From Octopus vulgaris (Eukaryota): DNA of 64,000 bases. Positions 4,117-57,772 of this stretch are shown here, in pieces (the stretch's first letter is position 1; every line of letters starts with the position of its first letter). The stretch spans positions 24,056,001 through 24,120,000 of the forward strand of contig OX597826.1 in the NCBI GenBank assembly GCA_951406725.2, read 5' to 3'. Made by a program: the position numbers and the translations under genes. The notes under the pieces are model-generated. The model ran no database searches. It saw only the letters and a program-made list of their open reading frames with translations, and was not told the origin of the DNA.

Positions 4117-4160
<44 letters not shown>

Positions 4161-4323
4161 TGACGTATATTTGCCATCTCAATATGGCTACCCCTAAGGG
4201 TGGATGCTACTGTAGTTTTTAGCCCCAGGAGGACACACTCCTCCAGCTGGCCATAGACACACTTTCTGTGTCCTGTCAGTATTTGCAAAGGGAAGTCATC
4301 CTTCCCGTCTTCAACTTATGATA

Positions 4324-4368
4324 CACACGGACTCGAGTTTCGAGGTATTGACCTCTCGTCAGCGTGTG
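4324..4368 (-). ncRNA. Minimal type I hammerhead ribozyme (inverted-arm copy)
   Basis: Reverse complement of 4593-4637. Confidence 0.9.
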
Positions 4369-4592
4369 ACAATCATAGTTGTCGGCGAGAATTAGATTTC
4401 CTTCACAAATACTTATACTTTTTCCAGCGTCCACTGTCGCTGATATTGAAAAAGTGAAATCAAACAATGATATATGGCTACCCCTAAGGGTGGATGTTTG
4501 ATTTCACTTTTTCAATATCAGCGACAGTGGACACTGGAAAAAGTATAAGTATTTGTGAAGGAAATCTAATTCTCGCCGACAACTATGATTGT

Positions 4593-4637
4593 CACACGCT
4601 GACGAGAGGTCAATACCTCGAAACTCGAGTCCGTGTG
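4593..4637 (+). ncRNA. Minimal type I hammerhead ribozyme
   Basis: Stem I CACACG/CGTGTG, core CTGACGA, stem II GAGGT-caat-ACCTC, GAAAC, palindromic loop TCGA, GTC cleavage triplet (cut after 4631). Confidence 0.93.
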
Positions 4638-4848
4638 TATCATAAGTTGAAGACGGGAAGGATGACTTCCCTTTGCAAATACTGACAGGACACAGAAAGT
4701 GTGTCTATGGCCAGCTGGAGGAGTGTGTCCTCCTGGGGCTAAAAACTACAGTAGCATCCACCCTTAGGGGTAGCCATATTGAGATGGCAAATATACGTCA
4801 CGATGTGTTACTGCTACTGTATATAACTCACTTTGATATTTATCATTG

Positions 4849-4877
<29 letters not shown>

Positions 4878-4886
<9 letters not shown>

Positions 4887-5030
4887 CAAAAGAAAAACAG
4901 GATGCAAAGGTACCGCTAAACCCTTTGCATCCTGTTTTTCTTTTGATAAATATACCCTATCACCTACACCACTAACTGGCATATACAGGTGCTTACAGTT
5001 ATCAAGTATTCACCCTGGATTTTTTGTACC
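4878..5030 (+). mobile_element. Short fold-back element with tail in (TA)n
   Basis: Arms 4878-4910 and 4922-4954, 11-nt loop, unpaired tail 4955-5030, TA tracts on both sides. Confidence 0.65.
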
Positions 5031-46949: not shown

Positions 46950-49900
46950 TCAACAATGAAAAACTCCCAAAAGGGGGAGACGTTTCGAAAGGTTCCTGGT
47001 GGAAAAAACCCTACAAAAGCCAACGGGAGCCTGGTCAAAAAGGGGGTGTAGAGAGTCCCGTTTTTCTCCTTTTGTATTACCTTTTTGAAATAACAGACGA
47101 AACCTGAGAACTGGTCCATTTATACTGGCCAGTCTCGCACAATTCACCCACCTTTCATAAAACTTGCTATTGGACAGCACTTTCCTCTCTAACCTCATCT
47201 TCCTTTTCAAGTGAAACTTGAAAAAGTTGATAAGGCCTTGACCAAAGAGGAAAGTGTCTGACTTTAGCCCTTTCAAACGAGTCCACCACACAACTTCTTT
47301 CGCCACAGCCACTAGGCATAAGAAAACGGCCTCGCCCTCCTTGTTAAAGGAGGTCGGCGGGGCAATCTTCACTATGGATTCGGCCGATAGTCGGATCCGT
47401 CCTACACGTGACAGTAGCTGTTCGACATAAACCCATATTTCAGCAATACTCGGGCACTGGACGAGTGCGTGCAGAACGGTTTCGTCGTCCTGGCAACACC
47501 TCGGGCAGGTCCGGCTGACGGCACTTCCGTGCCGGTAGAGTTTATCTCGAACAGGCAGTGCCCCTCGTAGCACTGCCAGGCGAGCGACCTCTGGAAATTA
47601 TCCATCGGCCCCAGCCCGAAAGTCCTCCCGAACAGACCGCTCAGTTCGTCGTCTTCAACGCCTAGAGTTTCCTCGAGAACGTCGTCGCATTTTTCCTCCA
47701 CTAACCCTCTATAGAACGCTAGAGTGGAGCTGTAACCGATCGCATTGCCCACCTGACGGAGGGCGGAGAGGGCTTGACGGCACTTGAGGTGCCAAGCGCC
47801 CTTTCTCGGTCTACGTTTGATCCAGGTCTGCAGCTCCGTCAAAGAGACAAGCTGCGGAAAATCGCGTCTGACAAAAAAACGACCACACCTGTTCACCGTC
47901 TAGGAAGCGCTTGAGATGCCGCAGCCTGAGCGCATGTCTGCGCAACAGCAACCACGGCATTCCAAGGCCTCCGTTCAGCGGTCGTTGACAGCAGATGGAT
48001 CGCCTGACCAGTGGCACCTGACCCTTCCACAAAAAGTCGAAGAGCAGGCGTACCAGCTTGGCCAACCAGCGGTCGGGACAAGGGACGACGGTCAAGCGGT
48101 AATAGATGACGGATGCGATGTACGCATTCACCACCTCCGCTCGACCTTTCAGGGACAGCTTCCTCTCGGCCCATTTCTGGGTGAGACGTGCCACCCTGCT
48201 CGTCACCTCTTCCCAGTTCTTATCCACCTGGAGGTCCGGACCGAACCAGACCCCGAGCAGTTTAACGGGTCCGTCTGTCCAGCGCCCTACGACGCTGTTG
48301 GACGGCCCAGTTGCAAGCCCACAGACTTTTCCGCGTTAATCTTTGCCCCTGTCACCGCTTCGTACTGGTTTAGTGTCTCGCCAATCAGGCCAATGTGCCT
48401 GTGGCTCGACACCACCACGGTGACGTCGTCGGCATAAGCAGACACGCTGTTTCCGCCTCCTAGATCGCGCGGGATACCCCTCAAAGCCTCCAACTTGCGC
48501 AGTAATGGCTCGAGAGTCAAAATGTACAAGAGGGAGGAGAGAGGGCATCCTTGGCGGACCGAACACGAGATGTCGAACGGTTCCGAAAGGTGGCCGTTCA
48601 CCCGTATCACCGACCAGATGTTGCTGTATAAAGCAGCTATCCACCCGCGGAAGACTGGACCGAAGCCGGCTGCCTTGAGGACAGCTGCCAGGTACCGATG
48701 GTCGACCCTATCGAAGGCTTTACTCTGATCCAAGTTGATCAAAGCCCTACCCGCGCCAGCGTCGTTACCCACCCTCTCTATGATGTAGCACATGAGATGG
48801 AGGTTGTCGTGTATCGACCTGGTCAGCACGGCGCATGTCTGCGTCTTGCCGACCAGCTTGTCCACGACAAGCGCCAATCTCTTGGCTAGCACCTTGGCCA
48901 AAATCTTCAACTCTGCATTGAGCAGAGTGATGGGCCGGAAATTGCCTATAATGTCCCCCTTGTTTGGGTCCTTCTTCAGCAAAGCCACCACCCCTCGACA
49001 GACAAAAGCAGGAATTCTCCCGTTTTGCTGCCAGTTGCAGTAGACATTTGCCAACAGGCCCGCAAACAAGTCAGGCATTGAAAAGTAAAGCTCGTAGGGC
49101 AGACCATCCAAACCCGGTGATCTACCTCTCGTGCAACTCTTCATCGCTTCCTGTACTTCCCAGGCAAATATCGGTCCTTCGCAGCACTCTGCCTCGCTGT
49201 CCGAGAGTTGCGGTAGGCCGTCCAGGTACACACCGAAGTCTGCACCGTTGTCCGTTCCACCGCTCGTCCCAAACAGTTGAGCAAAGTGCCGCTGAAGCAC
49301 CGTACACATCTGCTTCGGTTCGGTAACCTCGCGCCCGTTCTGGTCCACCAAAGACCGAATGGTTGCTTTGTTGCCTCACTTCGCCTCTGCCACGCGGGCC
49401 CATCGAGTGGCTCTAGTCCCCTCCCCGCTTAGCGAACGTGCCTTAGCTCTGACAATGCAGCCTTCGTGTTTGGCGTCAAAATGTTGGTCGAGGGCCAACC
49501 TTGCCGCCAACACGTCGGTCGCGATGCCAGTGTCAAGAGCCTCGTCTAGTTTCTTAACTAAATCCCACTCTCTCTTCCTACGTTCAATAGCTAGAGTCTT
49601 ACTATACCTAATCGACTCTACTTTAATTGCTCTCTTGAGGGCAAACCACCAGTTGTTGTTGATGATTGCCCCCGTGAGCGCCCGCTTAACTAGTAAACTA
49701 ATCCGGTCTCTGTAAGCTTTGCACGCCGTTAACGACGCGTTCAGCTTCCAGTAGCCGGGTCCCTGTCTATGTAGCCTATCTAAGTCGACCGTACAGATCA
49801 CTAATTTGTGGTCCGTATATTCGACTAGGTGGAATTGTGGACACCCTACGCTGTCCTTATCCGCTGGCCTACAAAACACTCTATCTAAGTACGATCTAGA

Positions 49901-50490
49901 CGACCCGATGCGGTTGGTCCAAGTCCACATTGGCACATTCGGGTTGTCTAGTCGAAACCTGTCGGACAGCTGAAAGCGGCCGAGTAGGTTGGCGAGGCTC
50001 TTGCACCCTCCCCCTCTCCTATCAGACGCTCCCCTGCCCACCCGATCGAAACGTTCGTCTAAGACAGCGTTCCAATCCCCAACTAGCACTAGAGTGCGTG
50101 ACGTTCCCAGGAAAACTTCCAGACGTTTGAAATAATCCGACTGCCCTGCTCCTGTCGGAGCGTAGGCAGCCAGCAGTCTGAAAGCACCGCCGTCACTACT
50201 GTCGACGTCGAGGACCACCAACTTACCTTCCGGATCCAAGAAGACTGTCCTTATTTTCAGGTCCAGGCCCTTCCGAAACAACACCGCAGTACCACCACCG
50301 GCCGACACGGAGATAGAAATATCTCGTATCTGCCGAAAAGGGCTGCGAGTTCCTGCGGGTCGGAGAGCCTGGTTTCACTGATGGCTGCTACATCCACATC
50401 ATGAAAACTCAGGTCGTTTAACAGGGGACCCTGTTTCCAAGGTGACCCGAGGCCTCTCACATTCAGGCAACCGATTCTAAGATTTGCCAT
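46950..50490 (-). pseudogene. Tx1 ORF2: APE endonuclease + reverse transcriptase + CCHC, disrupted
   Basis: LNVRGL..ISET, GDWN, YLDR, TDH (APE); DQSKAFDRV, RQGCPLS, YADD (RT); CPRC..ETVLHALVQC; about four frameshifts and one stop at 49376. Confidence 0.92.
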
Positions 50491-50493
50491 GTT

Positions 50494-52353
50494 TCAAAAG
50501 TTAGGAAAAAAAAAGGAGAAAAAAGGCTCTACTTGCTGTTGTTGGTGGTGGGGGGTGGCTCCCTTGTTTTTTTGCACGGGTTCTTCCACAATATTTTTAT
50601 ATAGTTTCTTAGAGAAACTTTTCCCTAACGATCCCACATCGTTAGGGAAATTTTGTTTGATTTCATTATATATTGTTTTGTTTATTTTTATTGTGAGAAT
50701 GTGTGCTGGTGGTGTGTTTTTTGTTGGTATAACGAAATCTGTTATATTTGTGCTTGTTTTGTCTTTCAAATACTCAACCAATTCTTGGTTTTTTGTATTT
50801 ATTGCTGTAATTGTGTCTGTGTTTGTTTGTGTCTGTGGCAGTGGCAGTGGCAGTAGTGGTGTCGAAAGTGTTGTTGTTGTTTGTTGTTGTGAATGTGTGT
50901 TGTCGTTGATGTTGTTGTTGATGTTTGGAAGCACTATTTGTTCGTGCTTCCCCTGTATATCTTTTTGTTTTCTCCTCCTTTTCTTTTTTGGAGGCACTGT
51001 GCTCCATTCTCCTTTGTTGGAATCAGAGCTCGCACAATCCGAGTACTCTTCATCCGGCAAAGGAATGGTTGAGGGGTCTGCTTCAGCAGCAGGACGAAAG
51101 GTTGTTGGTTCCGCCGGTATCGGTGGTGCCGCTGCTCCTGTTGCTGTTGATGGTGCTGCTGTCGACTTTCTAGGTACTGGTGTTGGTTTGGTGGTGGTTG
51201 TTGTTGTTGGAGGTGGTGTTGTTCGTCTTGGTGCTGGTGATGGTGTTGGTGGTGTGGCAGCTTTTGGTGTTTCGTGTTGTTTCTGTTGTTGTTGTTTCTG
51301 TTGTTGTTGTTTCTGTTGTTGTTGTTGTTGCTGCCTCTTGCTGTAAGCCTCCATTCTCTTTTTTTGAATGGGGCAGTCCCTCTTTAAGTGGCTTTCGCTG
51401 CTGCAGAGGAAACATTTTGGCTTTCGCCCCTCTACAGCAATGTTTAGCCTGGTGCCGTCCGGCAAACTAACGAAATCTGGGACCTTGCTGATATTTTCTT
51501 GCTGAATTTGAGCAAGAAGCAGCACTCCCATCCCCAACCAGTTTTTCTCCCTCACTCTCCTGACATCCAGAATGGTGGTAGTGTCCTCTATATCATAGAG
51601 GACAGCTGCCACCAGCCATGACATATCTAGTTCAGGAGGGGCAAGGTCAATCTTTATTTTTGTCACTCTTCGCCCGAGGTGGGTCGGGACGAGTAACAAA
51701 CTCTCAGTTTGCAAGGGCGAAATGGTGTTCGCCCTTGCTTGCTCCTCTGTTGGGAAGCGAACCTCCACGGTTCCGAAACGCTTCCCCTTGGTTACGTAGC
51801 TCTTTTGGGCCCAAATGGGCTTTAGAGCTATCTCTAACTGTTGGGGTGTGGCGTTTGTCATTTTTTTCAGTTTTCTATCGAAAACTCTGTATGTAATTGT
51901 TTACCTATTGGTGTTGTCAATTACATCTTGTGGAGTATTGAGGAAGATGCTGTTGCCATCCTTCCTCAACAACTCCTTTGCTTTTTTAATGTCTTGTAAT
52001 GTAATTTTTACTTCCTCCGAAATTTGCTTCGCAGCAGAAGCAAAATCGTTGGAAATTTTTACATTTTTCTCTGTGTTCCTGTTTGTGTTTGTGTCTGTTA
52101 TAACTTTCCTTTCCTTCCCCTTCGGTACAACATCACATGTTGAAGGAATAGGGGGAAAATCGGGAGTGACGTCGAATGCGACGTCCTGGTTAGCATTCTC
52201 TTTTCGAACGGCGCGCGTGCTTTCCGTTTCGGAAGGAGGAGCTCTGTTGCCTTTTACGGCGCGAAGTAGGTGTTTTTTTGGTGATAACGTGTGTGTTTGC
52301 GGAGGGAATGTATTTGGAAGGAAGGAACAGCTAACTGCTCGCTTCATAGCCAT
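50494..52353 (-). pseudogene. Tx1 ORF1 (Gag-like, zinc knuckle) with one in-frame stop at 51901-51903
   Basis: ORFs 52353-51901 and 51861-50494 share a frame, joined by TITYRVFDRKLKK; CFLCSSESHLKRDC knuckle followed by Q/P/T-rich region. Confidence 0.85.
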
Positions 52354-54206
52354 TTTTTGTTTAAAAGTTTGTTATTTTGACAAAGTTCAAAAGTTCAAAA
52401 TGCAATTTCACCCCCAATGGGGCAAAATTTTGCCTAGCCAACCAGCTTCGTACGAAGTTAGTCGGCTTGGCCACACAAATATTAAAAAATATTACAACTT
52501 ACAAACAAATTTCCAATGAAATTGTCACAAAAATCACGGAGCTTCCATACACACGTCCATCCGCGTTGGAAGGAATAATAATAATAATAATAATAATTCT
52601 TTCTACTGGAAGCAAAAGGCCTCAAATCCCTGGGGAAAGGGATTAAGCCGATTACATCAACCTAAGTACGTAACTGGTACTTATTTAATCAACCCCAAAA
52701 GGATGAAAGGCAAAATCGACCTTGGTAGAATTTGAACGAAGAATGTAGCAACAGATGAAATACCACTGAGCATTTCATCCAGCGTACTAAAAATTCTGCC
52801 AGATTGCCACCTTAATAATAATAATAATAATAATAATAATCTATCTACTAAAGGCACAAGGCCTGAAATTTGGTGGGAGGGGACTTGTCAATTACATTGA
52901 CCTCAGTATTTTACCGGTACTTACTTTATCGGCCCCGAAAGGATGAAAGGGTAAAGTCGACCTCAGCAGAATTTGACCTCAGAACATGAAGAGAGATGAA
53001 ATACTGCAAAGCATTTGGCCTGGCGTGCTAATGGTTCCGCCAGCTTACTGCCTTAATAATAATGATAATAATAATAATAATAATAATAAATAAACTCACC
53101 ACACTAATAATAATAATATCAGTCTTTTTTTGCTAAATCACTAAGTTATATAAACAAACAAATATCAGTTGTGAAGCAGTGGGGGGGGGGGGCAAACGCC
53201 AGCGACAAAGGTACACACACAAATATATATGACAGGCTTCTTTCAGTTTCCATCTACCAAATCCACTCACAAAGCTTTTGTAGAAGACACTTGCCCAAGG
53301 TGCCATGCAGTGGAACAGAACTCAGAACCATATGGTTTGGAAGCAAACTTCTTACCATATGGCCACGTAGATGTTTTTTTTCCAAGCTGCCACCCGAAAC
53401 CAATGTGATTGCAAAGCGAAATTCTTAACCAATCAACCATGCCTGCACTTATGAGATATCGATAATAATAAATAGCGATAACAATATGAAATAACGAGAA
53501 AAAGATCTCCAAAATTGAGGCAGGCGACCACACAGAGGGCATTGAGTTCATCTTGCATTCTACACCAGGTTATTCTGTCACTCCGAAGATAAATGCCTTC
53601 TCCCTGTTCCTGCCACTCGCCTACAACCACGTGCGCACGTGTGTGTATATATAGCATAGGTCCATTAAACCATATCAATCCAATGTAATCAGATCTCTGG
53701 GGGTTAATGGGTTAATTTCTAATCTAGCACACTTTTTTATTATATTTTATTTATCTCTTTTTTTTGTCTTAGAAGCTTGGTATTCAAAAATGTTTGTGGA
53801 GAGAAAAACATGAAGCGAAGAATTTGTACATGTATGCGTGTGCGTGCATGTGTGTGTGTGTGTGTATGTAACGTGTGTCTCAGGGATGGGTGGGTTATGT
53901 GTGTGTGTGTATGTGTGTAACATTTCAGAAAAAGAAAACAAATTCCTGTTGCTTTCAAGAGAAGAAAGTCAGTTCTATGAGAGATATAAGATATTGGTAA
54001 TTACATCTCAGTTTTTGTATTCAGTGTCTTTTGGTCTTTAGTATTATGTCTACAAACAGAAGAGACAGAAAGAAAGGAGAATCTGTGTGTATGTGTACAT
54101 AGATATATGTGTGTTTGGATTTGTGGATACATGCGTATGTGTAGGTCTATATATATTATATATATGTATGTGTGTGTGTATATGCATGTATATTGGGTGT
54201 ATGCAA

Positions 54207-54275: not shown

Positions 54276-56636
<2,361 letters not shown>

Positions 56637-56865
56637 ATATATATATATTTATATATATATATATATATGTATATATTTATATAATAATAAATATTAGGGA
56701 ATAAATCCAAATTTACAGGGAAAAATCAGATTTAGGATTAAATCCAATTTTATAGTAAAATATTATATAATATAATTCGAGACAAAACCACTATTTTGCA
56801 AAACAAACAAGGAAAGACTTAATCAATACATAAAAATTTTTTTTTTAATATAAAGAAATAAACCG

Positions 56866-56908
56866 CCACTACAATCGTTTCATGTCTTCAATGACATTCG
56901 TCAGGTGG
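56866..56908 (-). ncRNA. Minimal type I hammerhead ribozyme in TA-embedded insert ~56680-56950
   Basis: Minus strand CCAC-CTGACGA-ATGTC-attgaa-GACAT-GAAAC-gatt-GTA-GTGG. Confidence 0.85.
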
Positions 56909-56948
56909 ATTTTCGATCTCCTAATCTGTTTTAATTTATGAAGTCTTA

Positions 56949-57048
<100 letters not shown>

Positions 57049-57413: not shown

Positions 57414-57762
57414 ACAATTGAGGGTAAAATCAATTAGTTCTCAATCAATTTCACCAAGTATTCAGTATGTAAAAGGACCATTTAAGGCGAATTCAAAATA
57501 TTACATTATATAATTAGGGCTTAGTAAAATAAATTACTTTGCCACATACTGAACTTTCTAGAAATAGCAGCCCAAAAAGTTTTTTAGCCATTTCCACTAC
57601 TTAAAGAAAATTTCTCTCGGATAATGTTTACTCAAATGTTATTTTGAGTAAACATTATCCGAGAGAAATTTTCTTTAAGTAGTGGAAATGGCTAAAAAAC
57701 TTTTTTGGCTGCTATTTCTAGAAAGTTCAGTATGTGGCAAAGTAATTTATTTTACTAAGCCC

Positions 57763-57772
<10 letters not shown>
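57411..57772 (-). mobile_element. Fold-back element, second copy of family B
   Basis: Starts TCAACAATTGAGGGTAAAA like 35443; tail 57411-57506; arms 57507-57636 and 57643-57772 (one mismatch seen); folds back before the ribozyme. Confidence 0.85.

Follow-up and report, generated by a model that had tools for sequence, protein, structure and literature searches.

A palindromic retrozyme insertion in Octopus vulgaris, likely the product of Penelope-type priming of two cDNAs

The window, i.e., the whole 64,000-nucleotide stretch of Octopus vulgaris DNA that was analysed, holds a palindrome which is likely an insertion footprint. Specifically, it is probably one recent retrozyme insertion, with its head-to-head arms likely the work of a Penelope-type reverse transcriptase (RT)/endonuclease that primed two cDNAs on one RNA. 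The hammerhead ribozyme that had been flagged at this locus is itself ordinary, as one of 446 intact ones, and the value of the locus is instead found in the insertion footprint of the family to which it belongs. That family fits a known kind of element, a young non-LTR retrozyme, here in hundreds of copies.

The locus and its ribozyme

This copy is typical of its family, with a short end at 4157, a tail end at 4849, and filler with a 2-nt overlap found centrally (Table 1). The ~310-bp inverted repeat of the original prediction stands, as arms 4157-4466 and 4495-4804; these nevertheless differ at one base, 4533, and the element continues on to 4849. No frames of at least 130 aa are found across 4157-4849, and the element is without an ORF. 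An autonomous Penelope-like element was rejected as an identity for this stretch, as no RT plus GIY-YIG ORF is found within it, with such ORFs found elsewhere. A microRNA identity was rejected as well, as the Rfam microRNA matches of the palindrome fall short of their gathering scores and merely mirror the hairpin.

Table 1. Features of the window, in window positions
Feature	Position	Strand	Remarks
Left (TA)n target tract	4118-4158	no strand	
Short-ended arm	4157-4472	-	unit 347-352 then 1-310; outer 3' end (unit 310) meets (TA)n
Mirror copy of extended hammerhead	4312-4381 (core 4324-4368)	-	inverted repeat, motif scan, Rfam model
Templated filler	4472-4496	-	25 nt, unit 261-285; direct repeat D2; overlaps left arm by 1 nt, right by 2 nt
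Tail-ended arm	4495-4849	+	unit 1-355, i.e., one whole unit plus 3 nt
Extended hammerhead	4580-4649	+	stem I prolonged past UGU/U internal loop; fold z -3.4
Type I hammerhead core	4593-4637	+	motif scan, Rfam model
Tail between two fixed 3' ends	4805-4849	+	45 nt; on tail-ended arm only
Right (TA)n target tract	4850-4882	no strand	
Inverted repeat in same (TA)n run	4878-5030		33-bp repeat at 4878-4954; ~75-nt extension on one arm only
tRNA-like Rfam match	26650-26712	+	anticodon GUU, 52.6 bits
Long LINE-like element, in pieces	46950-52371	-	endonuclease- and RT-like frames, by eye
RT-like frame	55014-56648	-	544 aa, by eye
Second type I hammerhead, unrelated, in TA-flanked element	56650-56955 (core 56866-56908)	-	GUA cut site
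TA-flanked palindrome	57523-57766		one arm only extended (~95 nt) before next (TA)n

A type I hammerhead was taken to consist of CUGANGA, GAAA, and NUH, together with helices I to III, with the whole open at helix I. All of these are present in the flagged core: CUGACGA at 4599-4605, GAAA at 4620-4623, and GUC ending at C4631, with stem II as 4606-4610/4615-4619 (5 bp) and stem I as 4593-4598/4632-4637 (6 bp). The claim of an intact core and intact stems I and II thus is borne out, with a motif of equal quality seen in 0 of 200 shuffled windows (a looser version averages 0.025 per shuffle). So too is the claim of a 2-bp stem III, which encloses UCGA; as ACUCGAGU is self-complementary, a dimer fold is possible. 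The cut site is predicted between 4631 and 4632, i.e., unit 137/138. The Rfam Hammerhead_1 model (RF00163) matches over positions 1-45 of 45, at 32.2 bits and E 4.4e-6 in a 671-bp search, vs. a gathering score of 34, and in the whole-window Rfam search this hammerhead is absent among the 150 of 163 matches listed. The description of this hammerhead as 'minimal', however, did not hold up, as stem I continues past an internal loop. The minimal Penelope-type hammerhead is described, in the accessible text of PMC6155905, as without helix III and tertiary contacts, and was rejected as an identity here given this family's 2-bp helix III and extended helix I. In the accessible text of PMC7229834, a 2-bp stem III with tetraloop is likened to the hammerheads of invertebrates, efficient cleavers for the most part, and an axolotl hammerhead of this build performed better as a dimer. 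As predicted for the circle, the active fold is a minority one (stem I 0.64, stem II ~0.3, stem III 0.00).

Helices are kept in 25 aligned copies (pairing in 90.4% of cells, with 10 double changes; none of 500 shuffles as good), although the shuffle control overstates this conservation because the aligned rows are related. A-U/G-C swaps are seen in stems I and II among these copies, which are of young and older subfamilies, and all loop letters except one are 90-100% conserved, as would be expected of a full type I ribozyme, in which loops I and II may be in tertiary contact. In 21 of 25 rows (alignment A1, columns 33/46) there is a mismatch at the base of stem II, vs. the canonical G-C of the young subfamily, so the ribozyme may be recently tuned. 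Constancy of the core nucleotides (1 change in 2039 vs. 287 in 61455 elsewhere) was dropped as evidence of conservation, as loci had been chosen by exact core or best score. Separately, a CCGA core, with C for the conserved core U, occurs in 7 of 24 older aligned copies (L153, L154, L157, L164, L165, L169) as well as in three of five loci of a hammerhead-bearing autonomous Neptune-like family (L181, L186, L187), and these variants evidently spread.

The hammerhead is, as had been predicted, encoded on both strands. With just one sense ribozyme per strand there is no cis dimer and no monomer release, and this copy is in that respect a dead end. It had been suggested as well that a transcript from either strand would hold the ribozyme and its antisense copy within a double-stranded hairpin. 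A hairpin is indeed predicted for read-through RNA, at -629 kcal/mol, but it would bury the ribozyme: from either side the antisense arm comes first, with all 13 ribozyme pairs predicted at probability 0.00. That hairpin, along with small RNAs reported from rotifer Penelope copies (PMC3846280, accessible text), could be taken to indicate a selected device, i.e., a host locus that supplies ADAR or Dicer with ~310-bp dsRNA and bears a ribozyme on either strand. Such a device is nevertheless highly improbable, given not only the burial of the ribozyme but also that the locus matches the family reference at 99.4-100% and has the same build as dozens of others, and that no host gene was recognised by eye among the 71 listed window frames. 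Those frames that were recognised by eye are retroelement fragments. Contigs from four putative RNA runs include none that bridges the unique junction at the locus centre, 4467-4496, a gap which proves nothing.

Other features of the window can be noted here. For the second, unrelated hammerhead at 56650-56955, relatives at 86-91% are found in L193 (inverted) and L054. The palindrome at 57523-57766 may be another twin-primed insertion, with weak relatives in L038, L190, and L057. ARAGORN calls no tRNAs, the tRNA-like Rfam match included.

The family and its paired ends

Exact hammerhead cores number 446 genome-wide (2.8 Gb; control, 0) and are spaced 352-353 bp apart, in head-to-tail units of 352/353 nt, up to about six per arm, with full-length units mostly 97-100% alike. 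With a second search pattern, older relatives were located at 708 places, and the 30 that were retrieved are roughly 72-94% alike. The unit, with a G+C of 151/352 and no long frame, folds strongly as a circle (z about -7). Of 93 loci, 83 have (TA)n on one flank or both, and target duplications of ~8-13 bp were seen at three of five loci inspected by eye, these being unreadable inside (TA)n, as at this locus. The family in these terms displays what is asked of non-LTR retrozymes, i.e., units of 150-450 bp in head-to-tail order that each contain a type I hammerhead, are non-coding and under 50% in GC, and are associated, when there is a target duplication, with one longer than 4 bp. Contigs of the four putative RNA runs cover the unit, mostly as older variants, with A>G places inseparable from alleles; as they reveal neither ends nor level nor strand, they were set aside as evidence. 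One insertion, L061, has flanks that are inverted copies of each other. Neither this family nor a paired-end rule was found described in the openly accessible literature searched.

For classification, 93 loci were used: 60 which hold the first 100 cores in genome order plus 33 others from among the 40 best-scoring. The first set consists of 31 head-to-head and 29 single-orientation loci, and the second of 11 and 22, respectively. The palindrome as a special feature is not supported; it is the usual architecture of a young family, as seen in 31 of the 60 position-ordered loci. Long, near-perfect inverted arms in a TA context might also suggest a DNA transposon of fold-back or MITE type, bounded by long terminal inverted repeats, its hammerhead there by chance. 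Such an element should possess equal terminal inverted repeats and a fixed structure. Here the two outer ends differ, neither 5' ends nor arm lengths are constant, and 51 of the 93 loci are single-orientation, most of these being head-to-tail tandems; this candidate was rejected, and is scarcely credible.

What is fixed are the 3' ends, which lie at unit ~310 (short) or at 352-355 (tail), with 5' ends variable. At single-orientation loci the 3' ends are short in 38 cases, tail in 11, and of another kind in 2. The 42 inverted loci are 37 short + tail and 0 with two ends alike, the remaining five having one unclassifiable end. All 37 classifiable inverted loci, that is, combine one short with one tail end (p 7e-12 vs. 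50:50), these being 36 independent loci as L063 and L067 look like one duplicated event. Among 30 older loci, 14 are inverted, with 10 short + tail (one of these pairs read from flank), one two-short (L169), and three unclassifiable, i.e., 10 of 11 classifiable inverted loci of older subfamilies display the pairing. An inverted 5'-truncated copy and a tail at one end, as are seen with Penelope-like insertions, thus are both properties of this family.

One template or two

The arms of a locus resemble each other in their alleles. Majority-vote subfamily calls are concordant in 39 of 42, and because the three misses are mixed haplotypes, site-by-site allele tests were used. Arms agree in 136 of 138 of these subfamily-site tests, with 50-68% expected, though the ages of the two young subfamilies are unequal (0.34% vs. 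0.68%), so that this concordance may be partly temporal, and conversion between arms could add to it, both of which weaken the one-RNA step. Rare variants of template type, i.e., which fill one arm, are found in both arms in five of five cases, four of them unique to one locus; of all rare variants, only 17 of 253 are common to both arms. It is against these observations that a second reading can be weighed, in which family and helper are the same but each arm comes from an RNA of its own, the two being bound by an asymmetric enzyme dimer, or the arms come from different transcripts of a single source locus. An identical stretch of RNA is copied into both arms, for which one molecule would need strand displacement; the correlation of arm lengths does not reach significance (rho 0.25, p 0.13); and a dimer is predicted for an anole Penelope protein (PMC11167929, accessible text), all as two RNAs would allow. 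The shared rare variants and concordant alleles argue the other way, however, and two RNAs alone provide no reason why both arms never start at the same site. This reading is unlikely.

The form of the template can be considered as well. Only two of 135 5' ends are near the cut site (4.2 expected), and arms run intact across it. As 5' ends are not gathered there, copying crosses the cleavage site, and the template accordingly would be an uncut multimer or a ligated circle. Variants in multi-unit arms are present in all units in four of six cases, which does not distinguish circle from multimer.

Shared alleles would be predicted also were the inverted arm to arise by fold-back self-priming of the first strand, or by later DNA repair. 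Self-priming has been proposed and argued for with rotifer Penelopes (PMC3846280, accessible text), and junctions at L090 and L074 are near-symmetric. Still, neither arm is contained in the other at 12 of 37 inverted loci, this locus included, which argues against fold-back copying, as do L196 and L210 of an autonomous, 781-aa family, where likewise neither arm is contained in the other. In addition, the two 5' ends of an inverted locus usually differ widely, and copying gives no cause for a fixed second end. Fold-back or repair is therefore a quite improbable origin.

Variants shared within a locus (n=21) include six A>G and no T>C (p 0.03), vs. 10 A>G and 17 T>C among single-unit variants (n=151). 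This excess is a weak hint of edited templates and, at that strength, concerns the template RNA of the family rather than the hairpin at this locus.

Mechanism, helpers and known systems

The preferred reading remains that of two cDNAs primed on one RNA. A helper Penelope-like protein would introduce nicks in the two strands of AT-rich DNA, offset by about 8-13 bp. Priming would be at the short site for one DNA strand and, 42-45 nt downstream, at the tail site for the other, with an uncut multimer or ligated circle as RNA template, and the two cDNAs would be joined via short overlaps or filler. In source arrays, ribozymes would process multimers to monomers, which would then become circles, as has been shown for other animal retrozymes. 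A stricter version, a two-primer rule, can be formulated, in which an enzyme dimer acts on one RNA (for the retrozyme, a ribozyme-made circle), one cDNA coming from the short site and the other from the tail site, with the second displacing the first. That version is tentative, its chances being somewhat short of even.

A second DNA strand priming on RNA, giving rise to an inverted 5' part, is known from the twin priming of LINE-1, for which the second site varies and there is no overlap between the two parts. Second-strand priming on RNA would be shared, but here neither site varies and the arms do overlap. Another comparison is with the anole Poseidon element (Frangieh et al. 2024, PMC11167929, as based on its accessible text), for which nicking and extension of both strands of an AT-rich target were seen in vitro with the purified protein, as was initiation at two internal RNA sites that bound the tail, i.e., with target and starts like those proposed here. 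Its ribozyme mutants left in vitro insertion unaffected, and the ribozyme needed help from protein. No start-site difference between strands was seen there, whereas here each inverted insertion uses one of each, and that text does not link the two start sites to inverted insertions.

Endonuclease-bearing Penelope-like elements in general (PMC8557442, PMC3846280, accessible text) display, as here, partial tandems, an inverted 5'-truncated copy, often a tail at one end, microsatellite or AT-rich targets, and 8-10-bp duplications, with inverted one-end-tailed copies described qualitatively. Unlike those elements, the present family is without an ORF and its tail is 42-45 nt vs. 30-40; nor does it have sequence in common with the autonomous Penelope-like families examined here. 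Metazoan non-LTR retrozymes (Cervera and de la Pena 2020, PMC7229834, accessible text) likewise consist of a non-coding tandem unit, of 150-450 bp (350-390 bp in mussel vs. 352/353 nt here), and have in common with this family a GC below 50% (43% here), a type I hammerhead per unit, strong self-pairing, and coexistence with Penelope-like elements. Circular RNA and cleavage have been shown for them, whereas both are predictions for this family; that text is without the words 'inverted' and 'microsatellite', and fixed paired ends or head-to-head arms are not described in it.

As to helpers, this genome possesses a young RT + GIY-YIG element of 781 aa with a Neptune-type CxxC linker (clade label from the accessible text of PMC8557442), itself with two 3' ends, 39 nt apart. 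Among the 41 of its loci that were examined, short + tail is seen in six of six inverted ones with both ends in view, the query having pre-selected tail ends. A second, hammerhead-bearing family displays the short + tail pairing at L186. A copy of the 781-aa Neptune-like family, with the family having many open frames, is found at L195 (G000:C2:17353500-17360000, minus strand), and a hammerhead scan of its 3' region was negative. By age and target this family is the best candidate helper. In 50 of 148 listed GIY-YIG loci no pseudo-LTR homology to the unit, and hence no helper, was found, the sole unit match in those 50 being an old copy in TA-rich sequence past the end of that element. A Penelope-like neighbour in L097 looks unrelated by eye.

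Dependence of vertebrate retrozymes on Penelope-like elements has been argued by Li et al. 2026 (10.64898/2026.07.22.740005, accessible text) from co-occurrence and pLTR homology. The evidence here is instead an insertion footprint, with homology not found, and neither 'tail' nor 'mollus' occurs in that text. The role of Penelope-like elements in moving retrozymes so far, that is, rests on co-occurrence and homology, and it is upon that role that the footprint bears, along with the origin of inverted and tandem insertions, which for Penelope-like elements has been called unresolved (PMC8557442, accessible text). A 352-nt template, two nucleotide-exact starts, a one-of-each rule, and matching arms together make for a small, direct test. 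The family could also be used to examine whether edits made in RNA become copied back into DNA. If the two-primer rule is true, then the tail, the head-to-head repeats, and the tandems of retrozymes would all follow from a single step, as would an occasional writing of A-to-I RNA edits into the genome.
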